NCBI GenBank assembly: GCA_009694925.1
Contig: SIBX01000001.1
Coordinates: 1-59,243, forward strand
Length of the DNA stretch: 59,243 nt
Origin: Minisyncoccota bacterium
GTDB lineage: Bacteria; Patescibacteriota; Minisyncoccia; UBA6257; 1-14-0-10-40-38
Direction of reading: 5' to 3'
Shown: piece by piece, positions 4,385 to 59,082 of the stretch
How the letters are laid out: each line of letters opens with the position of its first letter
Position numbering within the stretch: the first letter of the stretch is position 1
The notes under the pieces: generated by a model
Database searches by the model: none
Told to the model about the DNA's origin: nothing
What the model saw: only the letters and a program-made list of their open reading frames with translations
Program-made: the position numbers and the translations under genes

Positions 4385-4393
4385 TATTTAAAT

Positions 4394-4431
4394 AAAAAAA
4401 TCCCGACCTGCATAAGGTCGGGATTTTTTTA
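4394..4431. terminator. bidirectional intrinsic terminator between rplI and rpmA
   Basis: aaaaaaa-atcccgacc-tgcataa-ggtcgggat-ttttttt. Confidence 0.85.
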
Positions 4432-7529: not shown

Positions 7530-7534
7530 AAATT

Positions 7535-7564
7535 AAAATCTCTTAGCTTTAGCTAAGAGATTTT
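7535..7564 (+). terminator. intrinsic terminator after the 5559..7529 gene
   Basis: aaaatctcttagc-ttta-gctaagagatttt, a perfect 13-bp stem whose 3' arm ends in a T-run. Confidence 0.75.
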
Positions 7565-7575
7565 AATTAACGAAT

Positions 7576-7734
7576 ATGTTTGAGAATTTTAAGACCTGGC
7601 TAAAAGAAAACGAAAAAAGAATATTATTTATCATATTAATATTTTTAGGAATTATCTTAAGTTTCGGCTTAGGATTTCTACTTGGTAAAAGTTCAAAAAT
7701 TACTCCAATTATTATTGAGAAAAACTCTGATTAA
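7576..7734 (+). CDS. small membrane protein (52 aa)
   Basis: Not in the ORF track because it is under 60 aa. ATG..TAA gives MFENFKTWLKENEKRILFIILIFLGIILSFGLGFLLGKSSKITPIIIEKNSD, with one clear TM helix and AT-rich host-like codons. Confidence 0.45.
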   Translation: MFENFKTWLKENEKRILFIILIFLGIILSFGLGFLLGKSSKITPIIIEKNSD

Positions 7735-7740
7735 ATTTTA

Positions 7741-7774
7741 AGTGCCACCCCAGCTTTACGCTAGTAGTGGCACT
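7741..7774. terminator. GC hairpin at the left edge of GC island A
   Basis: agtgccac-(18 nt)-gtggcact. It lies 17 nt downstream of the stop of the minus-strand 7792..8004 ORF. T-run is weak. Confidence 0.5.
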
Positions 7775-7791
7775 TGGACTCCCCGAGATTT

Positions 7792-8004
7792 TCAACTAAG
7801 GATTGTAACACTCCCGTTGGGCTGGAAATATGGCTCGCAGTCCGTATTCATCCTGTGTCCAAGAACTGCGCCGCACTGAGGACAGGTCACATTGGAATGA
7901 TCCCAGCATTGGCAGTTTTGGACAGTGCACCGGTCAAATGTGCCAACCCAGGAACAGGTGCACATGATCCTGGTCTTCAGCTCACATTCCTCTTTTACCG
8001 CCAT
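7792..8004 (-). CDS. GC-rich orphan micro-protein, 70 aa, 9 Cys (zinc-ribbon-like)
   Basis: GGAGGTG lies 5 nt upstream of ATG 8004. Sequence MAVKEECELKTRIMCTCSWVGTFDRCTVQNCQCWDHSNVTCPQCGAVLGH... has CxC, CxC and CxxC pairs. Own promoter and hairpin. Confidence 0.55.
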   Translation of the reverse strand: MAVKEECELKTRIMCTCSWVGTFDRCTVQNCQCWDHSNVTCPQCGAVLGHRMNTDCEPYFQPNGSVTILS

Positions 8005-8046
8005 TCTGTCACCTCCCAAACTTAGAGATAGGAAGCCTCTCTTAAA

Positions 8047-8075
8047 ATTATCAACTCTATTTCTTAAAAAATCAA
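8047..8075 (-). promoter_or_regulatory. predicted sigma70-type promoter for island A ORF
   Basis: Minus strand: TTGATT (8075-8070), 17 nt spacer, GATAAT (8052-8047). Divergent from the rnpB promoter. Confidence 0.5.
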
Positions 8076-8078
8076 GAT

Positions 8079-8107
8079 TTGTATATTTTTTATATTTATG
8101 GTATAAT
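8079..8107 (+). promoter_or_regulatory. predicted promoter of rnpB
   Basis: TTGTAT, 17 nt spacer, TATAAT. The -10 box ends 6 nt before the predicted P1 5' end. Confidence 0.6.
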
Positions 8108-8113
8108 TCTCAA

Positions 8114-8474
8114 TGTCGCTTAGGTGATTACGCAATACCTTAAAAATATTGTGAGGAAAGTCTGGACTCCTATCTCGCGAGAAATCGCGGGTAAACGTAC
8201 CGGTTAAAAGCCGGCTAAGTCAGAAAGTAATTTCTGGTTTAAGAGGTGCGAAAAGTGACGCCCAAAGACGAAAGAATTTGGGAGTCCGCTTGCGGACTAA
8301 TCTCTTCTATATTGAAGGAAGAGAGTGCAACGGCTAAATTCCTTACGAGGTGCAAGATCGTGCTCTAATTTAAAAGTTAGAGAGAATCGCTTGAGCTTGA
8401 AAGTAATTTCAGGCCTAGATAAATTATCATCATCCATTTGCAAGAATGGCACAGAATCCGGCTTATTAGCGACA
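8114..8474 (+). ncRNA. rnpB: RNase P RNA, bacterial type A
   Basis: GAGGAAAGTCTGGACTC (P4 5' strand, 8153-) and ACAGAATCCGGCTTAT (P4 3' strand, 8451-). P1 pairs tgtcgct (8114-8120) with agcgaca (8468-8474). A terminator follows. Confidence 0.9.
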
Positions 8475-8483
8475 AAAACAATA

Positions 8484-8516
8484 AAGACCCGCGCCTAAAG
8501 CGCGGGTCTTTGATTT
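8484..8516 (+). terminator. intrinsic terminator of rnpB
   Basis: agacccgcg-cctaaag-cgcgggtct followed by ttgattt. Confidence 0.8.
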
Positions 8517-8603
8517 GACTATTAAGATTGCTTTTAAGCTAACTGTCCGTTACCATATTACACAGCTCTTGGGACCACACAGCTTCTCAAGCTGGAGAAA
8601 GTC

Positions 8604-8789
8604 TTGGTGGAAAGGGGAAGGCGTTTGGCTGTCGGTCTGTTTCGGATGGTGATCGGAGTCTTTTCAAAGGCTCCAGCGCATGAGGGAGAAGAGAGGACAA
8701 CGGCTCTCAGGGTCTGTCTCGTGGCAGCCCTCGGTACGGTCCTCATCATGTATTTCAGCGAGGGTGGGCACATGTTCCATCCGAACTGA
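8604..8789 (+). CDS. GC-rich orphan ORF, 61 aa, two hydrophobic segments (tentative)
   Basis: GGAG (8594-8597) lies 6 nt before TTG or 9 nt before GTG. Sequence MVERGRRLAVGLFRMVIGVFSK...ALRVCLVAALGTVLIMYF. A strong terminator starts 28 nt after the stop. Non-ATG start and weak promoter. Confidence 0.35.
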   Translation: MVERGRRLAVGLFRMVIGVFSKAPAHEGEERTTALRVCLVAALGTVLIMYFSEGGHMFHPN

Positions 8790-8816
8790 AGCACAAAATA
8801 ATCTCCGTCCACGCTT

Positions 8817-8857
8817 CGGCGCGTCTCACTTTGATAGTGGAACGCGCCGTTTTTTTT
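8817..8857 (+). terminator. intrinsic terminator closing island B1
   Basis: cggcgcgt-(17 nt)-acgcgccg, a perfect 8-bp stem followed by T8. Confidence 0.75.
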
Positions 8858-8859
8858 GT

Positions 8860-8917
8860 AAAAAAAGACCACCTTCGCTTGAATATTTTATATTAAGCTT
8901 GGGTGGTTTTTGGTCTT
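8860..8917 (-). terminator. terminator-like hairpin plus T7 after the 8930..9151 ORF
   Basis: Minus strand reads aagacc..ccacc..ggtgg tcttttttt. It converges on the plus-strand terminator at 8817-8857. Confidence 0.5.
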
Positions 8918-8929
8918 CGACAATAGTCA

Positions 8930-9151
8930 TTATTGAATACTGCCGGATTGAAAAAGTATCGCTTCTGGCCTCAGCTTGTCTGCTCTTTCTTTGCAGATTA
9001 CAGAGCAAAATGGCCTTTTGCATTTGCCGACATAATAGAGGCTGTCGACTGGGATTACTGCTTTACATTCAGTGCAATCGTGTCTGACTTTGGCCATATG
9101 ATGTTCTGGAACCAGATCATCGTCTTCGTATCCTCCAGCGCATCCGCACAT
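8930..9151 (-). CDS. GC-rich orphan micro-protein, 73 aa, FCS/TRASH-like zinc finger
   Basis: GGGAGGAA lies 8 nt upstream of the ATG. ...HDCTECKAVIPVDSLYYVGKCKRPFCSVICKE fits C-x2-C-x19-FCS-x2-C. Confidence 0.55.
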   Translation of the reverse strand: MCGCAGGYEDDDLVPEHHMAKVRHDCTECKAVIPVDSLYYVGKCKRPFCSVICKERADKLRPEAILFQSGSIQ

Positions 9152-9200
9152 CAGAGTTTCCTCCCATGTTTGTGACCGCCATAAGACCAGTGCTTTCTAT

Positions 9201-9230
9201 ATTATAATCTTGATTTAAGACATTTCGCAA
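9201..9230 (-). promoter_or_regulatory. predicted promoter for the 8930..9151 ORF
   Basis: Minus strand: TTGCGA (9230-9225), 18 nt spacer, TATAAT (9206-9201). Confidence 0.5.
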
Positions 9231-9248
9231 ACTGTTTTAAAAATGAAA

Positions 9249-9302
9249 GAGTCCGGTTCAGAATTTTATCTGATACCGGACTCCTGCCCCGCCGTAGCGG
9301 GG
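9249..9302 (-). terminator. tandem hairpins terminating the 9315..9530 ORF
   Basis: gagtccggt-(17 nt)-accggactc plus ccccgc-cgta-gcgggg. On the minus strand they are followed by tttcattttt. Confidence 0.6.
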
Positions 9303-9314
9303 ACTTATTCGCTT

Positions 9315-9530
9315 TCAGGCGGTGGCGACGGCGAGTTGACGCTCGTCGACCATCTCCGTGATCGTCGGAGCCGAGAAGCGCCGGATGAGATCCAGTCCGC
9401 CCGGCTTCCTGCCACCAGCCGCGATGATCATCTGCGCGATGAGCCCGCGAGTGGTCGGAGCACCCCGGAAAGTCCGGATCTCGCAACGGCACTCACCGCT
9501 CACCCTGCATGCCCTTGAGTCGCAAATCAT
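9315..9530 (-). CDS. GC-rich orphan micro-protein, 71 aa, N-terminal Cys cluster
   Basis: MICDSRACRVSGECRCEIRTF... (C-x4-C-x5-C-x-C). Weak SD GGGGAAAG 6 nt upstream. Consensus promoter and terminator hairpins flank it. Confidence 0.45.
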   Translation of the reverse strand: MICDSRACRVSGECRCEIRTFRGAPTTRGLIAQMIIAAGGRKPGGLDLIRRFSAPTITEMVDERQLAVATA

Positions 9531-9622
9531 TTCAGTCTTTCCCCGATTGCCATTCTAGCCTCGTGTTACCGAGCTAGAGGACTGTGAGTGAGTAGGGCCA
9601 ATCCCTTATCACTTACTTTATC

Positions 9623-9652
9623 ATTATATCATACGATACATCTATTTGTCAA
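9623..9652 (-). promoter_or_regulatory. near-consensus promoter of island C
   Basis: Minus strand: TTGACA (9652-9647), 18 nt spacer, TATAAT (9628-9623). Implies an approximately 85-nt GC-rich leader with hairpins before the ATG at 9530. Confidence 0.65.
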
Positions 9653-9666
9653 TATATAAAGCCTAT

Positions 9667-9717
9667 AATCCTTAAAAATAAGGGTTCTGTTGTAAAAATC
9701 CCTTATTTTTAAGGATT
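9667..9717. repeat. perfect 18-bp inverted repeat (hairpin or operator)
   Basis: aatccttaaaaataaggg-(15 nt)-cccttatttttaaggatt. It lies between the divergent island C promoter and the surface-protein promoter. Confidence 0.7.
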
Positions 9718-9743
9718 CTTTATAATTTATAAACTCACAGCTC

Positions 9744-9772
9744 TTTACAAATTAAATTGACCTTGATATAAT
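9744..9772 (+). promoter_or_regulatory. predicted promoter of the 9846..11867 gene
   Basis: TTTACA, 17 nt spacer, TATAAT. Confidence 0.55.
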
Positions 9773-9845
9773 ATGGAAATGAAGGTTGGGCTTAGAACGT
9801 TATTAATAGTAGCGATAAACCCAGAAAATAATTTAAAATAACTAT

Positions 9846-11957: not shown

Positions 11958-12068
11958 AATATTTAGTACACGATTCGGTGTGTAAGCCGGATCAACAACA
12001 GAGATTCGCAATTCGAGAGAGGGAGGGTTTCTCTTTAGCCCGCTTTTGTGGGCAGAAGGAATTTTCTC

Positions 12069-12584
12069 ATGAAGGCCTTGATGTTGGTTCTGGCGGTGCT
12101 CCTCGTGGGAGCCTCGGCAGGAGCTGTCTCTTCGGCAACGTCGGCGGAACCGACCACTCTGAAGATGGTCGATCCGTTCGTCTCGGCGACCGTCACGGTG
12201 AACGGCGTCGTGGTGGAGGTGGAGTTCGTGGATCTCTCCACGGGCCTCACGCTCACGACGACGAATCCGGCTCTCGTCGCGATGGCTAGCGATTACGTGA
12301 GCGATCCGGATACGTCATCTGCACGCTTCACCAAGGATGTCAGCGACGGCAACGGGGGCAAGAAGAAGGTCGAGATGACCATCACGGTCACCAAGCGATC
12401 CGAAGAGTCCGGCAAGGAATTCCTCAGGCGCTTCGAGAAGCGTTGCGAGGACGCCATCTCTTCTGGTTGGGAGCCCGTCGTCACGCCGACGTCGAACGTC
12501 TACGACTCGAACCGGCCGGTCCTCGACGTCGTCCATCTCTACGACAGGGACGACCCGCCTTCGGACATCGGCAACGCTGTCTGA
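12069..12584 (+). CDS. GC-rich orphan secreted protein (171 aa)
   Basis: GAAGGAA lies 8 nt upstream of the ATG. Signal peptide MKALMLVLAVLLVGASAGAVSSATSA. Codons overwhelmingly end in G/C. A strong terminator follows directly. Confidence 0.7.
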   Translation: MKALMLVLAVLLVGASAGAVSSATSAEPTTLKMVDPFVSATVTVNGVVVEVEFVDLSTGLTLTTTNPALVAMASDYVSDPDTSSARFTKDVSDGNGGKKKVEMTITVTKRSEESGKEFLRRFEKRCEDAISSGWEPVVTPTSNVYDSNRPVLDVVHLYDRDDPPSDIGNAV

Positions 12585-12589
12585 ATGCC

Positions 12590-12637
12590 GACCCCCACTT
12601 TGCAAGCCAAGACTTGCGAGTGGGGGTCATTTTTTTA
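12590..12637 (+). terminator. intrinsic terminator of island D
   Basis: gacccccact-(19 nt)-agtgggggtc followed by a, T7. Confidence 0.85.
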
Positions 12638-12654
12638 TTTCATACTTTTTGTTT

Positions 12655-17510: not shown

Positions 17511-17527
17511 CCCCAGTCTTCTTTTTT
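17503..17527 (+). terminator. lysS terminator overlapping its stop codon
   Basis: gaagact-agcccc-agtcttc followed by T6. Confidence 0.7.
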
Positions 17528-17531
17528 AATC

Positions 17532-17561
17532 TTGACAATATATTGATTTAGGGAATAAAAT
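17532..17561 (+). promoter_or_regulatory. near-consensus promoter of island E
   Basis: TTGACA, 18 nt spacer, TAAAAT. Confidence 0.6.
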
Positions 17562-17617
17562 TATGTTCTATGCGTCAAAAGGTGGCGCAAAGACAGACTT
17601 TGGTTTGGGAGATAGAA

Positions 17618-17872
17618 ATGTCTGGAAGGAAGAAGGCGGTTGGTCCAGTTGAGTCTGGGGAGACACAAGAAAAAGTCCGCAAGATCAGTTCGTGTAGGCT
17701 TTGTGAGGGAACCGGCAAGGTTCCTCTCCGTTGCGGTGGCAAGTCTGAATGTGCTTGCACTTCTTCGACTAACAAGTCGAAGCGCGCTGCACTCAATCCG
17801 AGACACCTTTCTCTGACTACTCGTGGGGCGAACTTTCACGCCCTGCAACGCGAACGTAGCCACCCGTCCTGA
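17618..17872 (+). CDS. GC-rich orphan micro-protein, 84 aa, CxxCxGxG Cys cluster
   Basis: GGGAGA lies 5 nt upstream of the ATG. ...KISSCRLCEGTGKVPLRCGGKSECACTSS. An alternative in-frame ATG at 17570 sits right at the predicted TSS (leaderless option). Confidence 0.5.
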   Translation: MSGRKKAVGPVESGETQEKVRKISSCRLCEGTGKVPLRCGGKSECACTSSTNKSKRAALNPRHLSLTTRGANFHALQRERSHPS

Positions 17873-17898
17873 TCTGATATCTGTCTTTCAAGAAGTTC

Positions 17899-17930
17899 CA
17901 GCCCGGCTTTCCGAAAAGGAAGCCGGGCTG
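17899..17930 (+). terminator. GC hairpin closing island E (no T-run)
   Basis: cagcccggctt-(10 nt)-aagccgggctg, an 11-bp stem followed by tataattg. Confidence 0.55.
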
Positions 17931-17998
17931 TATAATTGATAAGTACCTCTTGTCATCCCCGAGACATCGGGGATCCAGTCAAAAAATCAATTCAAAAA

Positions 17999-18387: not shown

Positions 18388-19683
18388 ATGCTAGATATCA
18401 AATTTATAAAAGAAAACGCTGATTTAGTCCAAAAAGTCAGCGAAGAAAAAGGCTATAAGGTAGACGTCTCTGAAACTTTAAAGCTTTATGGTGAACAGAA
18501 TTCAATTTTGCAAAAAATAGAAAGCCTAAGAAAAGAAAGAAATGAGCTTTCCGCATTATCAAAAAATTCTAAGCCCACAGAAGAGCATATTAAGCGCGGC
18601 AAAGAAATTAAATTAGAAATTACACACCTAGAAGAATCTTTTAAAAAAGCAGAAGACGATTTTTTAGTTTCAGTTAAAAAAATTCCCAATATTTATTCCG
18701 AAGATGTTCCAAAGGGAAAATCTGAAAATGAAAATGTTGTAGTTAAAACAGTTGGCGAAATCCCAAAATTTAAATTTACCCCTAAGAATCATTGGCAATT
18801 GGGCGAAGCTAAGCATTGGATTGATAAGGAAAGGGCCACTAAAGTTGCCGGCGCGCGCTTTGCTTATCTAATGGGTGATTTTGTGAGATTAGAATGGGCC
18901 CTAATGCGTTTTGCTATGGATATTTTAACCGATGAAAAAATATTAAAGAAAATAATCAAAGCTAATAATTTAAAAGTTTCTTCGAAAGTCTTTATTCCAG
19001 TTCTTCCTCCATATATGATCAAAACCGAACAGTATGATGCTATGGATAGGCTTGAACCAAGAGAAGAAAGATATAAAATCGAAGGTGAAGATCTTTGGCT
19101 CCAAGGATCTGCTGAGCACGTTTTGGGCAGTATGCATTCTGAGGAAATTTTTAACGAAGCAGATCTTCCTTTAAGATATGTTGGTTTTGCCACCTCTTTT
19201 AGAAAAGAGGCTGGAAGTTATGGAAAAGATATGGAGGGCATCATCCGTCTCCACCAGTTTAATAAAATGGAGTTAGAAAGTTTTTCCGTAAAAGAAAACG
19301 GTATGCAGGAACATTTATTCTTTGTGGCTATTCAGGAATATTTAATGAAAGCGTTAGAGCTTCCTTATAGAGTGGTTATGAAGTGCACCGCCGATATCGG
19401 CAAACCTAACGCCAGAGGTATTGATATAGATGTCTGGCTTCCAGGACAAAATAAATATCGCGAGACTCACACGGCTGACTATATGACCGATTATCAGGCC
19501 CGCCGTTTAAAGACACGCGTCAGGAGAGCCGATAATTCAGTTGAATTAATCCATACCAACGACGCCACCGCGCTTTCCGAAAGGCCCCTTATAGCCATCT
19601 TAGAAAATAATCAAAGAGAAGACGGAACAATAGAAATTCCAAAAGTTTTGCGACCGTACATGCTTAAGAAAAAATTTATTTAA
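18388..19683 (+). CDS. serS: seryl-tRNA synthetase
   Basis: N-terminal coiled-coil arm MLDIKFIKEN...; FRKEAGSYGKD and RLHQFNK class II motifs. Confidence 0.93.
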   Translation: MLDIKFIKENADLVQKVSEEKGYKVDVSETLKLYGEQNSILQKIESLRKERNELSALSKNSKPTEEHIKRGKEIKLEITHLEESFKKAEDDFLVSVKKIPNIYSEDVPKGKSENENVVVKTVGEIPKFKFTPKNHWQLGEAKHWIDKERATKVAGARFAYLMGDFVRLEWALMRFAMDILTDEKILKKIIKANNLKVSSKVFIPVLPPYMIKTEQYDAMDRLEPREERYKIEGEDLWLQGSAEHVLGSMHSEEIFNEADLPLRYVGFATSFRKEAGSYGKDMEGIIRLHQFNKMELESFSVKENGMQEHLFFVAIQEYLMKALELPYRVVMKCTADIGKPNARGIDIDVWLPGQNKYRETHTADYMTDYQARRLKTRVRRADNSVELIHTNDATALSERPLIAILENNQREDGTIEIPKVLRPYMLKKKFI

Positions 19684-19687
19684 ATTT

Positions 19688-19725
19688 AAAGCGTCCAGCT
19701 GGGCTCTCCCATCTGGACGCTTTTT
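19688..19725. terminator. bidirectional terminator between serS and the island F ORF
   Basis: aaa-gcgtccag-(14 nt)-ctggacgc-ttttt. Confidence 0.8.
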
Positions 19726-19734
19726 GTATCAACA

Positions 19735-19923
19735 TCACGAACCTCCAGCCTTCTTTTTAGGAGAACCATCTCGGAAGATAAAGAACCAAAAAAGAAATAC
19801 AACGACGGGCAACAACACAGCGCAAGTAGATAGAATGTGTTCGCTATCAAAGCGGTGAAGAACGTCAGTCGCAAAGCCCATCCAGCTGCCCGGAATTGGA
19901 CACTTACTCTCCTCCTGTGGCAT
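19735..19923 (-). CDS. GC-rich orphan small membrane protein, 62 aa (C-terminal TM helix plus basic tail)
   Basis: AAGGTGGA lies 3-4 nt upstream of the ATG. MPQEESKCPIPGSWMGFATDVLHRF...CAVLLPVVVFLFWFFIFRDGSPKKKAGGS. Confidence 0.5.
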   Translation of the reverse strand: MPQEESKCPIPGSWMGFATDVLHRFDSEHILSTCAVLLPVVVFLFWFFIFRDGSPKKKAGGS

Positions 19924-20011
19924 TTTCCACCTTTTCCTTTTCTATTTGCCAATCGGTCTGTGTGCTGTTTTTCAGTCTACGACAATATTTCAAATTATTA
20001 AAGTCTTAGAT

Positions 20012-20266
20012 AAAAAAAGAACCCGGGGCCACACTGGTTGTGTGACTACCCGGGCGCAGAACAGCCCCATTCCCTAACTTTACAAGAGATTGCGATCTTA
20101 CCTAGGATCATCATCGCAGGCGTGGATTGTCGAAAAGACCAATCTGAGCGCACTTAGGGAGACTCCGAACATAACCAGACTGAAGTTCGATCTAGTTGCA
20201 GCGTCTTGTTGCCGGCAAGGAGTCTTTTCCCCTTATATCTAGCAAAGACCAGAGGGAACTTTCTGC
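20012..20266 (-). ncRNA. ORF-less GC-rich structured RNA, about 250 nt (independent sRNA or terminator-ending leader of the 62-aa ORF)
   Basis: Its promoter is at 20273-20300. Helices 20160-20166/20219-20225 and 20091-20096/20113-20118. Minus-strand terminator cccggg..cacac-aacca-gtgtg..cccggg followed by T7 (20012-20056). No ORF of 60 aa or more. Confidence 0.5.
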
Positions 20267-20272
20267 CCGTTT

Positions 20273-20300
20273 ATAATATCACAACTTTTAAAAGTTACAA
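20273..20300 (-). promoter_or_regulatory. predicted promoter of the island F RNA
   Basis: Minus strand: TTGTAA, 16 nt spacer, TATTAT. The -35 lies in a near-palindrome shared with the divergent ddl promoter. Confidence 0.5.
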
Positions 20301-20324
20301 ACTATGTCATTTTATGGTTAATAT
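20295..20324 (+). promoter_or_regulatory. predicted ddl promoter, leaderless geometry
   Basis: TTACAA, 18 nt spacer, TAATAT, then only 5 nt to ATG 20330. No SD. Confidence 0.45.
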
Positions 20325-20329
20325 ATTCA

Positions 20330-21385
20330 ATGAATAAAAAACTAAAAGTCTCCTTACTTTTCGGAGGAAAATCAGTTGAACACGAAGTTTCCATACTTTC
20401 CGCTAAAAATGTTTTTGAAGCAATTAATAAGGATAAGTATGATGTTTCCTTAATCGGTATTGATAAATCAGGTTATTGGCGATTCTTTACTGACGCAAAA
20501 ATTCTAGAGCAAAAAAGTATCAAGTCAATTGCCAAAAACCACAATGGATTCTTAAATCCAGACTGCGGAAAAGTACTAGTAAATTCAGACGTTGTTTTTC
20601 CCGTTCTTCACGGGACTTATGGCGAAGACGGCTCGGTACAGGGATTTTTAAAATTAATAAATAAGCCGTTTGTTGGTGCCGGTGTTTTGGGTTCGGCGCT
20701 CGGGATGGATAAGGAAGTTCAAAAACGGCTCTTAATCCAAGCGGAGATTACAACCGCTAAATTTTTAACTTATCAATCGTCAGAACTATCAACCATTAAC
20801 TATCACGCCATCACTACCAATCTGGACTTACCTTTTTTCATTAAGCCGGCTAATTCCGGATCGTCAGTAGGTGCATCTAAAGTTAAAAATGAGCCTGAAT
20901 TTATGCCAGCTATTTATGAGGCATTTAAATATGATAATAAAATTTTAATTGAAGAATTTATAGACGGCAGGGAAATAGAATGTTCGGTTTTGGGCAATAG
21001 CGAGCCAATCGCATCAATTCCCGGCGAGGTTGTGTCTAATCATGAATTTTATTCTTATGAAGCAAAATACTTAGACGAAAACGGAGCCGTTTTAAAAATT
21101 CCAGCCAAATTAAATAAGATAACAGCTAAAAAAATTCAAGAATTAGCAATTAAAACTTTTAAAGTATTAGAATGTTCAAGTATGGGACGCGTTGATTTCT
21201 TTTTAAAAAGAGATGGTCAGATTTTTATAAACGAGATTAATACTATTCCAGGATTTACCTCAATCAGTATGTATCCCAAACTTTGGGAAGCAACTGGCAT
21301 TAGTTATTCAGAATTAATAGATAGGCTGATTGAATTGGCTATAGAAAAATTTGAAAAGGATAGTAAGATAAAAACTTCTTATTAA
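20330..21385 (+). CDS. ddl: D-alanine--D-alanine ligase
   Basis: LFGGKSVEHEVS, HGTYGEDGSVQG, and ATP-grasp NEINTIPGFT motifs. Confidence 0.92.
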   Translation: MNKKLKVSLLFGGKSVEHEVSILSAKNVFEAINKDKYDVSLIGIDKSGYWRFFTDAKILEQKSIKSIAKNHNGFLNPDCGKVLVNSDVVFPVLHGTYGEDGSVQGFLKLINKPFVGAGVLGSALGMDKEVQKRLLIQAEITTAKFLTYQSSELSTINYHAITTNLDLPFFIKPANSGSSVGASKVKNEPEFMPAIYEAFKYDNKILIEEFIDGREIECSVLGNSEPIASIPGEVVSNHEFYSYEAKYLDENGAVLKIPAKLNKITAKKIQELAIKTFKVLECSSMGRVDFFLKRDGQIFINEINTIPGFTSISMYPKLWEATGISYSELIDRLIELAIEKFEKDSKIKTSY

Positions 21386-21391
21386 AGAAAA

Positions 21392-21441
21392 AGAGTCGCT
21401 AGAGGTCTTCGTGCAGAACTTGCACGAGACATAGCGACTCT
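21392..21441. terminator. long bidirectional hairpin between ddl and island G
   Basis: agagtcgcta-...tcgtgca-gaac-tgcacga...-tagcgactct, with T-rich flanks on both strands. Confidence 0.7.
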
Positions 21442-21490
21442 GTTGAAGGATTTATTTTTTCGTGAGTTCCTTCATTCTCACGGCGAGGTT

Positions 21491-22009
21491 CTAGCTCGCG
21501 CGCTTCTCCGATCGGGTCGAGGGGATTTTCCCGACTCGACGCAGTTCCTTGATGGCGCTCTTGCGAACCATGAGCGGCGCCCTGGATCGATCCAGTCGAT
21601 CGAGCTCCGCTATGGTCCGGCAAACCGAACCCAAGAGCAGTTTTTCGACTCCCTGGAGGCGAAGCTTCTCGGCTTCTGCATCTGCGAGCTTCACCCTTGT
21701 CTCCGCCAATATTGCCCTGTCATCCTCCAGTCGCCGGATGATTCCGACAATGTGCACGATCTGCTCTTCGGTCGGCGGACCCTGGAGAAGACCGAGAGTC
21801 GTCTGGACCTCGCCAGCCAAGCTCTCGTCGGTCTGCTCGAACTCCGGATCTTTGAAAACCGGAATTCTTGTGACCGTAACCTGTTCCGGGGTCAAAGAGA
21901 TTTGAACATTTCTCACGGTTCTCTCCCATTGTTCCGGCTTCATCCCAAATAGGGAATCAGCTTGGTTGTTCTGTTTTTGGTGCCGAGATAACTCCCAGCT
22001 ACCTTCCAT
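21491..22009 (-). CDS. GC-rich orphan protein (172 aa as listed; true start uncertain)
   Basis: A long ORF spans the whole island with a helical/coiled-coil-like C-terminal half (RLEDDRAILAETRVKLADAEAEKLRLQGVEKLL). The listed ATG 22009 is only 1 nt from the -10 box, so Met23 (21943) may be the real start. Confidence 0.55.
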   Translation of the reverse strand: MEGSWELSRHQKQNNQADSLFGMKPEQWERTVRNVQISLTPEQVTVTRIPVFKDPEFEQTDESLAGEVQTTLGLLQGPPTEEQIVHIVGIIRRLEDDRAILAETRVKLADAEAEKLRLQGVEKLLLGSVCRTIAELDRLDRSRAPLMVRKSAIKELRRVGKIPSTRSEKRAS

Positions 22010-22010
22010 A

Positions 22011-22040
22011 ATTATAGCACACTAATACTATAAAAGTCAA
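22011..22040 (-). promoter_or_regulatory. near-consensus promoter of island G
   Basis: Minus strand: TTGACT (22040-22035), 18 nt spacer, TATAAT (22016-22011). Confidence 0.6.
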
Positions 22041-22100
22041 TAGGCAAGAAAGCCCATATAAATTAGCCAAAATAGACCATTTAAGTTATTATGAAATCCA

Positions 22101-24539: not shown

Positions 24540-24830
24540 GAAGTAAGTCGAGAAGTCGCAAGTCAGCTTTTGGACGCTAAGCTTTCCTTCTTTGCCAGCA
24601 TCCAAAAGTCCGCAAATGGGCTCTTCTTCGCACAAGAGTTGAATTTCTCGTTTCATTCGGTCTCTCAATCCTCGGGCGACCACTGGCTAACCGACTAGAC
24701 CCGGTAAGCCGATACGGTGAGCAATCTCTGGGACAATGTAAGAGTTAATGAACCAGGGAGCGAGAAAAATTGTGCTTCTAGGCTTATCGGCTTCGGGTTG
24801 AGGCAACTCCTCCGCCCGAAGCCTCTTTAA
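24540..24830 (+). ncRNA. ORF-less GC-rich structured RNA, about 290 nt (sRNA or leader upstream of ychF)
   Basis: Helix 24567-24574/24601-24608. Terminator ggcttcggg-(17 nt)-cccgaagcc followed by tcttt (24789-24830). 24706-24714 can pair with 24785-24793, which overlaps the terminator 5' arm. Confidence 0.5.
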
Positions 24831-33426: not shown

Positions 33427-33483
33427 GGTTTGTTTAACTTTTTAGCTTGAAATTTTATTTTAGGTTAAAAAGTTAAACAAACC
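33427..33483. repeat. perfect 17-bp AT-rich inverted repeat just upstream of the J2 SD
   Basis: ggtttgtttaacttttt-(23 nt)-aaaaagttaaacaaacc. No T-run on either side. It ends 10 nt before AAGGAG. Confidence 0.7.
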
Positions 33484-33508
33484 CGAAACCAAGAAGGAGC
33501 AAGAGACA

Positions 33509-34234
33509 ATGGCGAACTTCGCATTGAGCAAGACCTTTCAGATGATCGTTGACTACGATCTTCGACCGGGAGAGCTGATTGCTTATTCCGGTGTCCAGGA
33601 AGTCGCCAATTGGCAAGAGATGGATAGCGCGTTCTATCATCTCGCCAACGACCGCAGCAAGTTCCCTTGCGGGAACGAGCACCTGGTCCGGTATGAGGCG
33701 CGTGTGAGCACTCGCCAACCCTTCGTCAGCGGAGACGAGAGGCAGGTTCTGGTTGATGCGGCTATCGTTACGTTGAACGAGCCGATCAACGAGCGCCGAG
33801 ATCCTCCACGGGAGAGCGATGACCTCCACGACTTCGTCCAAGAAGTCGAGCGGATGGGCTATCGCCAAGCCAACTTCCGAGAAGTTCTAACTCTCGGCAG
33901 CGTGGCACTTCTTCCCGAGGAGCTTCTGACGCCCTTCGCCTTGATTGGTAGCAGTTTCCATGTTGACTGGAAACTGTCCAGGCAGGTGTTGGGCGAGAGC
34001 TGGGGAGGGAAGTTTCCGCTCCTGGCTCTTGGCGCTGGATGGGTCGACTGCACTGGAGGAGAAGTTGTCACTCCCTGCTTCGAGTTCGTCCGTGGCCGTC
34101 GCGCTCTGTCGTTCCAGGAGTACTTGTGGTGCGGTGTTGAGATCAGCACCAGGTACCGCATCCTCGTTATCAAGAGGACAGACGGACCCGCGACGATTGT
34201 GGCCAACCCACTTCCTCGCGACCGGAGTGTCTAA
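33509..34234 (+). CDS. GC-rich orphan protein (241 aa)
   Basis: AAGGAG lies 9 nt upstream of the ATG. The ORF spans the island with G/C-ending codons. Hairpins follow the stop. No family recognised by eye. Confidence 0.7.
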   Translation: MANFALSKTFQMIVDYDLRPGELIAYSGVQEVANWQEMDSAFYHLANDRSKFPCGNEHLVRYEARVSTRQPFVSGDERQVLVDAAIVTLNEPINERRDPPRESDDLHDFVQEVERMGYRQANFREVLTLGSVALLPEELLTPFALIGSSFHVDWKLSRQVLGESWGGKFPLLALGAGWVDCTGGEVVTPCFEFVRGRRALSFQEYLWCGVEISTRYRILVIKRTDGPATIVANPLPRDRSV

Positions 34235-34273
34235 CTTGTAATGAGTGGTGTCGCGCACAGCGACACTGAAAAA

Positions 34274-34318
34274 TCCCCCGTGGAAGATTGCAAAAATCTC
34301 CCGGGGGAATTCTATTTT
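34274..34318. terminator. hairpin region between J2 and the convergent 34322..35641 gene
   Basis: gtgtcgc-gcaca-gcgacac (34248-34266), then tcccccg-(21 nt)-cggggga with T/A-rich flanks. Confidence 0.55.
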
Positions 34319-46309: not shown

Positions 46310-46375
46310 CCCGTAGTAAGAATTCGGCAAATAAAAATTACTCGCCAAAGGCGAGTAATTGAATTTCACTGCGGG
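46310..46375. repeat. hairpin repeat E3 (GTAGT-hairpin family) at the left edge of island K
   Basis: cccgtagtaagaattc-...attactcgcc-aaa-ggcgagtaat...-gaatttcactgcggg. Starts 3 nt after the murG stop. Confidence 0.6.
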
Positions 46376-46377
46376 AT

Positions 46378-46826
46378 AAAAAAACGGCTCCGAGAGAAGT
46401 GCATGCGACTGTGTCGCAATTACAACCCCCGGAGCCTTACTCGACAACCCTTTCTTCACCTATTGGGGATTCCTATCAGCCTGGTTCGAAACCCTAGCTG
46501 ATCTGATGCCGCCATTGCCCAAAAACGCGGGCGTTCGGTGAACAGGTACGAGAGACTGCTGATCTCAGCCAATTCTCGACGAGCGGGTTATGAGAGCGGG
46601 GATGGTGGCTTGGTTTCAGCCAAGCCGGGGTCCTTTTCCTCAAACGTGACAACCCCCCACTAAGTCGAGAAAAACCGATCGCAATCTCTGTGTCCCTTTC
46701 TGGAGTTGTTTACCCCATAGGAGAAACCTGAGCCAGGCTTGCTTTTTACGAACAGATACACTGGCTTTCTCTGTTCGTTACCGCACTTTTACTCTAGTTG
46801 AGATCACGGCAACTCTCAACCATTAC
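46378..46826 (-). ncRNA. large ORF-less GC-rich structured RNA candidate, about 450 nt
   Basis: A consensus promoter lies at 46833-46861. Terminator ggctccg-(37 nt)-cggagcc followed by g, T7 on the minus strand (46378-46436). Helices 46573-46580/46664-46671, 46607-46613/46620-46626, 46750-46755/46771-46776 and 46797-46803/46814-46820. No internal ORF of 60 aa or more; the only listed ORF touching the interval (46250..46459, minus) merely enters its terminator end from outside. Confidence 0.55.
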
Positions 46827-53826: not shown

Positions 53827-53904
53827 TAGAATTCAGAATTAAGAATTTAGGTTTTTTTAACCCCATTCTCTCCTAAATTCTGCATTCTATATTCTATCCA
53901 TAAA

Positions 53905-54195
53905 TATTTCTCCCCTCGACAAGCAATGCTTGGAGCGAGGGGGCAAGGAAAGGCTCGGAGACTAGTCGGCGGAAGAGAGACCGCTGTGGGGCGATGGCGG
54001 CGAAACGGGGAATGCCCATACAGAGTTCATCATCCGTCTACCAGTCTCCGAGCACAGAATTTCAAAGAACAGGAGTGGGAGATGAACTTGCGCCATAGCT
54101 AGCCCGTGCCCACGGTAACCATGGCATGCCTACGTGCTTCTCTCATCTCAGGAGGATTCTTTGCGTGCCCACTCGTCTCCCGCTCCTGTTCGTGC
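53905..54195 (+). ncRNA. ORF-less GC-rich structured RNA candidate, about 290 nt (strand tentative)
   Basis: Helices 53912-53918/53936-53942, 53954-53963/54043-54052 (10 bp) and 54067-54082/54176-54191 (16 bp). Three G-T pairs are tolerated only on the plus strand versus one on the minus. No clear promoter or T-run. Confidence 0.4.
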
Positions 54196-54292
54196 TGAAT
54201 TAATAATAGCATATTGATTTTTATAAAAAATAAAAAAAGTGGATAAGTATTATAATAATTATTCCAACTGATATCCTGCGGATAAGTTTATT

Positions 54293-54514
54293 AAAAAAAG
54301 AAACCGTCCGATGATATGCGCGTAGCGCATTCATGGACGGTGGTTCGGTTAAGAATGGGAGGGAGAACTTGCAAAATTGTTTCTCTGTGATTCGGAGCAG
54401 GTTTCCGTGTTGACTACAAACCTTGAGTTGCCTCATGATCTGTGTTCTTTCGGTAATTATGCGCCCTCTCACTAGAGTTATCTCTCGCAATCCCCCCCCC
54501 TCCCAGTATTAGCT
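54293..54514 (-). ncRNA. GC-rich structured RNA candidate, about 220 nt, starting with a GGGAG9 tract
   Basis: Promoter at 54521-54549. Minus-strand terminator accgtcc-(25 nt)-ggacggt followed by ttc, T7 (54293-54341). The G-rich 5' end pairs with ctccctccc (54357-54363/54498-54504). Confidence 0.5.
54492..54500. repeat. C9/G9 homopolymer tract
   Basis: Nine consecutive C on the plus strand, about 14-22 nt downstream of the predicted minus-strand TSS. Confidence 0.9.
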
Positions 54515-58311: not shown

Positions 58312-59082
58312 TTATCTAGATTTTGTAGGCATCACCCCTACCATCCTGCGAACCAAAACAGGATCAAGCTCTGTATGCGACTTACTAACCCCAGTAGCTA
58401 CAAGAAAAATATCAGCATTAGGAAGATATAGTTGAACATTGTCTGGTGTAATCCCGCTCGCTATCGCTAGTGCGTGATTCCCGATTGCTCCTCTTATTGC
58501 TCGAATCTTTTCCGGATCTGGTGGCGATCCGGTTGCTTCACCGCTCGTAGTAATGACTTCCATGAATGGAATAGCAAGTCTCGCGACGCGAGTCAAATCT
58601 CTCACCGGAGTTTGATGCTTGAAGGCCACGCCTCCAAAAATCAGCGGCAATCCAGGAATTCCTCCTCCCTTAATTGCCATATTAACCCTCGCAATCCTAC
58701 AAGGATCTTCTTCGTCTTCGCGGATGCCACCGTCATCAATCCAAACAGCGAATATTTTGTGCATTACTGCCAATCGAATCGCATCTTCACCCGAAAGATC
58801 TAAGAAGTTAACTCCGATTTCCAATCCTTGTCCCGGTCCCTTAGAGGTTTTAAACTCTTTTCTAACAGCAAAGAAGTGTTGCAGAAGAGTTGCGTATGTC
58901 ATTCCATGACCAATTAGAAAAACACACTTCACCCCAGCATCAAAAGCAATTCCTACATTCCTCATAACCTGCGATCTATTCTCGGCATGAATCACGATGG
59001 CCAACACATGATTAGTGTTGATACCATCTCTTAAACAGAAAGTTGCGCCGGACAAAATCATTCTGGGATCCATTTGGCTCAT
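58312..59082 (-). CDS. BtpA/SgcQ-family TIM-barrel protein
   Basis: VIHAEN, GVNFL, IFGGVAFKH, and ITTSGEATGSPPD...AIASGITPDNV...ADIFLVATGVSK resemble BtpA. AGGAGG lies directly upstream. G+C is visibly higher than in neighbouring genes. Confidence 0.75.
   Translation of the reverse strand: MSQMDPRMILSGATFCLRDGINTNHVLAIVIHAENRSQVMRNVGIAFDAGVKCVFLIGHGMTYATLLQHFFAVRKEFKTSKGPGQGLEIGVNFLDLSGEDAIRLAVMHKIFAVWIDDGGIREDEEDPCRIARVNMAIKGGGIPGLPLIFGGVAFKHQTPVRDLTRVARLAIPFMEVITTSGEATGSPPDPEKIRAIRGAIGNHALAIASGITPDNVQLYLPNADIFLVATGVSKSHTELDPVLVRRMVGVMPTKSR

Follow-up and report, generated by a model that had tools for sequence, protein, structure and literature searches.

Between the housekeeping genes serS (18388-19683, +) and ddl (20330-21385, +) of a 59,243-bp contig, analysed here at its full length and referred to as the window, lies a 646-bp spacer that holds a structured RNA and a micro-protein open reading frame (ORF), both read on the minus strand. 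The serS product of this contig is recorded at NCBI under a metagenome-assembled genome (MAG) of 'Candidatus Pacebacteria bacterium' (Patescibacteria/candidate phyla radiation, CPR). The explanation that we favour, and judge somewhat likelier to hold than to fail, is that the spacer carries a stand-alone structured small RNA (sRNA), a candidate for a new and narrowly distributed family, beside a separately promoted micro-protein gene. The original prediction for this region had put first a terminator-controlled leader regulating the peptide and had kept an sRNA plus a separate micro-gene as its fallback. That order is reversed by our analysis: the leader found no aptamer in Rfam, no antiterminator and a conserved promoter-like block in the way, whereas the fallback is favoured by the spacer promoter, the energetics of the terminator and the absent aptamer match, all of them in-silico results.

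The window has a GC content of 35%, compared with 44% for the serS-ddl spacer and 49% for the core of the RNA. Ddl gave a poor handle on relatives, its top match among the GTDB representative genomes being 59% identical and leading to no close relative and no RNA. Homologues of serS at 94%, 84% and 76% identity, on the other hand, led to contigs retaining the serS-ddl arrangement. The spacer measures 792 bp in the 94% lineage (L081, also represented by L082 and L083) and 1052 bp in the 84% lineage (L084, also represented by L085, L092 and L093); the RNA, terminator, Shine-Dalgarno sequence (SD) and ORF are present in both, as in the window. In the next lineage out (L086, 76%) the spacer is merely 108 bp and the RNA and ORF are both absent, and in relatives at 70-72% identity either synteny is lost or the element is absent. 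Sequencing samples SRR12487045, DRR736439 and ERR5863124/5 contain relatives. All orthologue comparisons below are of three distinct sequences (window, L081 and L084), the sole related lineages that could be reached. Their alignment retains the -10 region, the RNA right from its 5' end, the terminator with its U-tract, a block of ~40 nt in the spacer before the ORF, and the SD with the first ORF codons; the DNA separating these parts is unalignable across the three genomes.

The minus-strand promoter TTGTAA-16-TATTAT, reported in the original prediction, is present at 20300-20273, and a TG at 20281-20280 makes it an extended -10 promoter (scan score 9/12 with the TG; coordinates of all features are collected in Table 1). 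The TGnTATTATA block is kept in L081 and L084, and the transcription start site (TSS) is predicted at ~20266-20268, ~7 nt past the -10. P1, a 24-bp closing helix found in each of the three separate minimum free energy (MFE) folds, begins with GCAGAAAG... at this predicted TSS and pairs it with ...CUGUUCUGC, such that its 5' end falls within 1-2 nt of the expected start and its 3' end where the terminator begins. The terminator described earlier as strong and carrying a T7 tract (20056-20012) is likewise present: its hairpin has a predicted energy of -23.3 kcal/mol and is followed by U7 in the window, the orthologues giving -25.1 and -21.5 kcal/mol with U7-U8 in all three. A separate scan for hairpins followed by T-runs recovered the same element at 20012-20055; across the orthologues 92.9% of its cells are paired and 4 of 14 pairs show a compensatory change. 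A short non-coding stretch is bounded here by a predicted promoter and a predicted terminator of its own, as is expected of a stand-alone sRNA gene.

Within P1 the consensus fold is branched. The GGG/CCC pairs at the base of P2 are invariant and hence yield no evidence of covariation; a hairpin GCCGGC-loop-GCUGC is conserved; another hairpin, which L081 has lost by deletion, has one sequence in the window and a different one in L084; and P3 is 94.7% paired across the orthologues, with variation on one side only. Two helices had been proposed by eye. That at 20091-20096/20113-20118 corresponds to P3, is a perfect complement (UGCGAU/AUCGCA) and is present in the MFE fold. The other, at 20160-20166/20219-20225, is also a perfect 7-bp match (AGACUCC/GGAGUCU) and is in the MFE fold, but it is specific to the window, where it extends P2 through a 4-nt insertion, and only its GGG/CCC base is conserved. 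The description of the RNA as GC-rich and ORF-less was borne out, at ~49% against 35% GC; a coding reading was rejected, as the orthologues differ by indels of 1, 2 and 4 nt that break every frame.

The RNA core is 61-68% identical among the orthologues, whereas identity at the four-fold degenerate sites of serS is 39-51%, with 31% expected by chance. As core identity exceeds that of these near-saturated sites, the RNA appears to be under constraint; it diverges faster than the flanking coding DNA, which is 73-85% identical. The consensus fold is 87.8% paired compared with 35-48% in controls in which the partners were slid by 1-3 columns, and eight pairs are changed on both sides. In P1 the outer 8 bp never vary among the three sequences and the inner part has seven pairs changed on both sides. 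Fold z-scores were -3.1 for the window RNA with its terminator and, for the cores, -2.0 in the window and -0.7 and -2.8 in the orthologues. The minus strand is favoured because of its G-U pairs, the orientation of promoter and terminator, and its better z-score. The plus strand was rejected as the functional strand: there the G-U pairs become mismatches, the terminator faces the wrong way and the core scores only -0.9 (against -2.0).

Searches against Rfam 15 returned no family at the gathering threshold for the window RNA, the locus or the relatives, and at E up to 10 a search of 1.3 kb at the locus and of L081 gave only chance-level matches; the genuine matches within the window are one tRNA and an RNase P RNA. 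The Rfam check that accompanied the original prediction, in which a match to an unrelated housekeeping RNA was to count against it, thus yielded neither such a match nor a riboswitch class for the structured RNA. Neither nhmmer nor R1, a covariance model derived from the three cores, found a second copy in the window or any copy in 24 other loci, which included Patescibacteria contigs and covered other Patescibacteria genomes as short pieces only. A 23-base degenerate pattern of the core matched twice in a metagenome scan, both times by chance in GC-rich coding DNA; a scan of a viral collection had 0 matches, and comparison with phages and plasmids by blastn yielded no meaningful match. On these sequence comparisons the RNA is unclassified, with a very narrow known distribution of three lineages.

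Given that CPR RNAs can fall below Rfam thresholds, as the RNase P RNA of this window does (83 bits, the cut-off being 100), a housekeeping RNA that has diverged strongly, for example a 6S-like RNA that binds RNA polymerase, could have been missed, and the long closing helix, strong promoter and compact size would suit one. However, neither the 6S, the signal recognition particle (SRP) nor the transfer-messenger RNA (tmRNA) model gave a match at E up to 10 in the 1.3 kb, and ARAGORN found no tmRNA. The consensus fold and the three MFE folds are predicted to be multi-branched inside P1 rather than a rod with a central bubble, and 6S RNA was set aside on this ground and for want of a covariance-model match. 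A universal RNA should also be more widespread, yet this one is absent from the spacer of the 76% relative and from the other Patescibacteria loci fetched (short pieces only). We therefore consider a housekeeping RNA very unlikely.

The order of parts does resemble that of riboswitch and attenuator leaders that act by termination: promoter, P1-closed RNA, intrinsic terminator, SD and ORF follow one another on one strand. A cis-acting leader of the micro-protein mRNA, whether an orphan riboswitch or a protein- or ligand-dependent attenuator, with a terminator overridden under some condition, would explain this layout. It would also suit the occurrence of RNA and ORF together in three lineages. 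The original prediction saw 85 nt with no convincing promoter between terminator and ORF; that spacer in fact holds TTAATA-16-TAGACT, which sits in the conserved block of ~40 nt reaching AAAACAGCA and is scored as a promoter at the aligned position in both relatives, where TTGATA-16/17-TAGACT reaches 9/12 in L081 (7568-7541) and L084 (7628-7600). The DNA from the terminator to this block is not conserved and contains ~60 extra nt in L084. A separate TSS mapped between 19924 and 20011 had been named as the observation that would overturn the leader: a conserved promoter-like block does lie in this interval, although it is predicted in silico and is not a mapped TSS.

Alternative anti-terminator pairings, a search for which had also been proposed, were examined in all three orthologues, and no conserved and energetically competitive antiterminator was found. 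Holding the 3' arm of the terminator single-stranded costs 18-22 kcal/mol in folding in every case. The sole alternative pairing is of 5 bp, between ACGGG(C) and GCCCG of the terminator 5' arm; it can form in the window and L081, is broken by an A-C mismatch in L084, and uses nucleotides at or upstream of the predicted TSS. The P1 3' strand neither overlaps the terminator nor has complementarity to it. No aptamer class was matched even at E up to 10, and the gene downstream encodes neither a transporter nor an enzyme but an orphan peptide of 62 aa. The riboswitch/attenuator class is not supported in silico, three of its defining features being missing here (a described aptamer, a conserved competing antiterminator and an ORF without a promoter of its own), and we regard a cis-acting leader as unlikely. 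In practice, the locus should be kept off lists of riboswitch candidates until its TSS has been mapped and read-through measured.

Pairing in trans between the sRNA and the peptide mRNA was equally unremarkable: the longest complementary runs are of 8-9 nt, compared with a mean of 7.6-7.7 and a maximum of 11-12 in shuffles, and duplex energies were no better than those of shuffles, the unrestricted duplex-fold output being meaningful only as showing no such excess. Together, the results on competing structures, the spacer promoter and complementarity favour a constitutive terminator and a separately promoted ORF.

The second gene is a short one. An SD-led 62-aa membrane peptide had been predicted, and AAGGTGGA at 19933-19926 does precede an ORF (19923-19735) whose product carries a hydrophobic segment and a KKK tail. 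Of all frames, one alone is open in the window and both orthologues (62, 53 and 59 aa), gene callers predicted the orthologous ORFs, and the frame stays open through many substitutions and indels while the SD and transmembrane (TM) segment are conserved. The three peptides have the motif M-x(1-3)-(E/D)SKCP in common, in which the codons for S, K and P vary synonymously (AGT/AGC, AAG/AAA, CCA/CCG); overall they are only 28-31% identical where serS is 84-94% identical. The C-terminal hydrophobic segment has a Kyte-Doolittle value of 2.85 over 17 residues in the window (maxima of 2.85-3.53 in the three peptides) and is followed by a basic tail in all of them. The term 'tail-anchored' applied earlier is loose: the acidic N-terminus and basic C-terminal tail suggest, by the positive-inside rule, a single-pass N-out, C-in topology.

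Beyond the two orthologues, no homologue of the peptide was found by a word search of 5.8 billion clustered proteins, by phmmer against 1.84 billion representatives or by a profile search. For none of the three peptides was there a credible match in Pfam, PADLOC or NCBIfam, the only match being of the L081 peptide to LmuC (E 0.048). On this comparative evidence the ORF is probably a real, fast-evolving and lineage-specific single-pass membrane protein. At residues 7-9 (19902-19894, -) the conserved K-C-P followed by I/M/L resembles the Cys-Pro 'heme regulatory motif' (Cys-Pro, then a hydrophobic residue), a tentative lead.

The narrow distribution, the modest z-scores, the orphan peptide, and the neighbouring GC-rich islands with conserved promoters yet diverged bodies are all features that might be expected of a GC-rich remnant or fast-evolving spacer with no dedicated function, in which promoter- and terminator-like signals arose by chance around a spurious ORF. 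Against this stand the identity of the RNA, which is above the near-saturated neutral level, the compensatory changes in P1 and the terminator, and the one frame kept open with its SD and TM segment; of the explanations considered we hold this to be the least probable.

A small hydrophobic peptide with one TM helix and a basic tail next to an RNA gene, with a terminator in between, also raises the question of a functional RNA-peptide pair, either a toxin-antitoxin (TA)-like module, in which a membrane toxin meets an RNA antitoxin and the terminator sets the RNA:mRNA ratio as in type III, or a membrane-tethered ribonucleoprotein (RNP) like OLE RNA with OapA. Type I systems (hok/sok, tisB/istR-1, fst/RNAII) likewise combine a small hydrophobic single-TM peptide with an sRNA gene in a variable, fast-evolving locus, and the peptides here, at 53-62 aa with one TM helix and Kyte-Doolittle values of 2.85-3.53, are of the size and kind of their toxins (under ~60 aa). 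The sRNA of this locus differs in being on the same strand, upstream and ~250 nt long, and an antisense reading of type I was rejected as complementarity is not above that of shuffles. In type III systems (toxIN, cptIN, tenpIN) an RNA gene, a terminator and a protein gene also lie on one strand, and here too the terminator could set stoichiometry; the ORF, however, has a separate predicted promoter. Type III was rejected: Tandem Repeats Finder (TRF; minimum score 30, 19650-20350) found no tandem array and the peptides are not endoribonucleases of the ToxN/AbiQ/CptN type.

OLE RNA is ~610 nt long and known only from Firmicutes, and its partner OapA has four TM helices. The likeness is one of layout only, a structured non-coding RNA (ncRNA) gene immediately before a membrane-protein gene; there is no Rfam match for the RNA and no Pfam family for the peptide, and neither OLE nor OapA was recovered. 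Strict co-presence and co-absence of RNA and ORF, the variable content of the locus and the fast evolution of both parts would suit a pair, but among three close relatives such joint occurrence amounts to nothing beyond conserved synteny. A functional pair of this kind is in our view distinctly unlikely.

According to the explanation that we favour, the serS-ddl spacer would contain two adjacent, co-oriented minus-strand genes that are apparently promoted separately. The first would be transcribed from the extended -10 promoter, its first nucleotides pairing with the last of the core to form P1 around a multi-branched interior; the terminator would fire constitutively and set the 3' end of a product of ~250 nt. 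This RNA may act in trans through its fold, with a protein or some other molecule as its binding partner, and resembles neither an antisense regulator nor a cis switch. The second gene would encode the 62-aa single-pass membrane micro-protein, with its own weaker promoter, its own SD and a terminator hairpin shared with convergent serS.

Several points weigh against this explanation. The spacer promoter of the window scores only 8/12, a weakness that also speaks for a leader, so some or all of the transcription of the ORF could be read-through, and coupling of the RNA and ORF in this way may occur. RNA and ORF are always found together and are jointly absent in L086, a pattern that a functional link would suit as well. 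Covariation in P1 and the terminator is suggestive and, coming from only three distinct sequences, not statistically secure; the helices inside P1 are mostly invariant in these three and hence uninformative. Thermodynamic support alone is modest, one orthologue core having a z-score of -0.66. Finally, it is from sequence that we infer expression of the RNA and ORF, use of the spacer promoter, efficiency of the terminator and function of the RNA.

Candidates for structured ncRNAs have been drawn from long GC-rich intergenic regions of AT-rich bacterial genomes by the GC-rich intergenic region (GC-IGR)/DIMPL approach (PMC6429828, PMC8723152, PMC11109978). A stand-alone structured sRNA of this kind is the best fit among known kinds for the RNA of this locus, which is a GC-rich island (49% versus 35%) in a long spacer, with a promoter and terminator of its own, no ORF, a conserved fold and some covariation. 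It differs in belonging to no Rfam 15 family and in having three representatives, far below the number usual for naming a motif. Patescibacteria or CPR taxa are not mentioned in PMC11109978, and a literature search found no study of ncRNAs in CPR/Patescibacteria.

For the CPR, a group whose genomes are very small, a conserved, strongly promoted and structured RNA of ~250 nt that falls in no Rfam family would be a further candidate RNA class. The dozen or so similar islands in the window suggest that a sizeable share of the spacer DNA of this lineage encodes short transcripts of no known family. A bolder proposal, which we offer as a long shot, is that the RNA and the basic-tailed micro-protein might form a lineage-specific functional unit of the CPR, either a membrane-tethered RNP (cf. 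OLE-OapA) or a new RNA-peptide type of TA without antisense pairing or repeat RNA; it could be one of ~12 promoter-driven GC-rich islands in 59 kb making up an unrecognised repertoire of sRNAs and micro-proteins.

Table 1. Predicted features of the serS-ddl spacer (positions in the window)
Feature	Position	Strand	Details
sRNA promoter	20300-20273	-	-35 TTGTAA 20300-20295; 16-nt spacer ending TGA; -10 TATTAT 20278-20273
Structured sRNA, predicted product ~250 nt	~20267 to 20012	-	Promoter, fold and terminator
sRNA core, ~212 nt, 49% GC	20056..20267	-	P1 closing P2, P2a hairpin, variable hairpin and P3 (consensus fold of three orthologues)
P1 5' strand, GCAGAAAGUUCCCUCUGGUCUUUGC	20242..20266	-	Pairs with 20083-20056
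P2 domain	20156..20232	-	GGGGAAA 20232-20226 pairs with UCUCCCU 20162-20156; encloses conserved hairpin GCCGGCAACAAGACGCUGC and conserved GAUCGAACUUCAG
P3 hairpin	20091..20118	-	UGCGAU 20118-20113 pairs with AUCGCA 20096-20091; inner CCUAGG palindrome
P1 3' strand	20056..20083	-	Ends in invariant CUGUUCUGC (20064-20056), abutting the terminator
Intrinsic terminator	20012..20055	-	Two-tier 14-bp hairpin 20055-20021, then UUC and U7 (20018-20012)
Promoter-like site before ORF	19974..20001	-	TTAATA 20001-19996, 16 nt, TAGACT 19979-19974
Shine-Dalgarno AAGGTGGA	19926..19933	-	AAGGGG and GGGGAGGG in this position in the two orthologues
62-aa micro-protein ORF, ATG start	19735..19923	-	(E/D)SKCP N-terminal motif; one TM helix ~30-51; basic tail
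Hairpin GCGTCCAG...CTGGACGC 3' of ORF	19691..19720	-	Bidirectional terminator common to convergent serS; better T-run on + strand

A hairpin analogous to the one that follows the ORF was found by the terminator scan in L081. On the other side of the locus, only ~30 nt separate the start codon of ddl from the -35 of the sRNA promoter, which points the opposite way (20301-20332, +); no clear plus-strand promoter or SD was found in this interval, and the ddl transcript may have a very short leader or none. An extra GC-rich unit of ~215 nt lies between ddl and the RNA in L081 (7836-8048, -) and L084 (7990-8207, -); the window is without it and only TGACATA remains. The L081 copy comes with a terminator of its own and a TTGACA-17-TATATT promoter. 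The unit matched no Rfam family, and a resemblance to SRP RNA was not borne out by Rfam.

About a dozen further GC-rich islands (48-58%) are spread over the 35% GC window at roughly one per 5 kb (7741-8040, 8531-8860, 9231-9610, 12001-12650, 17601-17990, 21401-21920, 24581-24850, 29081-29410, 33011-33310, 33481-34310, 46341-46750, 53881-54210 and 58431-58700). Several are preceded by near-consensus sigma-70 promoters, for example at 9652-9623 (-; TTGACA-18-TATAAT with TG), 22040-22011 (-), 32974-33003 (+) and 46861-46833 (-), and several end in strong hairpin-plus-T-run terminators, at 8817-8857 (+), 12590-12636 (+), 28986-29026 (+), 29336-29387 (+), 46378-46434 (-) and 54293-54341 (-). The GC-rich islands of the window matched no Rfam family and the ORFs inside them carry no Pfam domain.

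The island between ddl and alr (21386-22100, -) has a promoter, TTGACT-18-TATAAT with TG, that is nearly base-for-base identical in L081 (9139-9768), and a body that has diverged past easy alignment, the longest ORFs being of 172 aa in the window and 114 aa in L081. The start of the 172-aa ORF is implausible because its ATG lies 1 nt after the -10. A GC-rich spacer upstream of a cytidylyltransferase-like gene (17511-17935, +) has counterparts in L081 (5224-5623) and L084 (5212-5559); its promoter TTGACA-18-TAAAAT and a 3' hairpin CAGCCCGGCTTTCCGAAAAGGAAGCCGGGCTG are common to the window and L081, and it could be an sRNA or a leader.

The RNase P RNA (bacterial class A) at 8112-8480 (+; 83 bits, E = 1e-23) is below the Rfam gathering score of 100 and is missed at default thresholds; it lies in a gene-poor, GC-rich stretch of 2.3 kb (7530-9845) that may hold more RNA genes. 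The hairpin TCCCGACC...GGTCGGGA at 4392-4431, a perfect terminator in both directions with a T7 run on either strand, gave rise to spurious sub-threshold Rfam matches to Thr_leader, C0465 and BSnc120.

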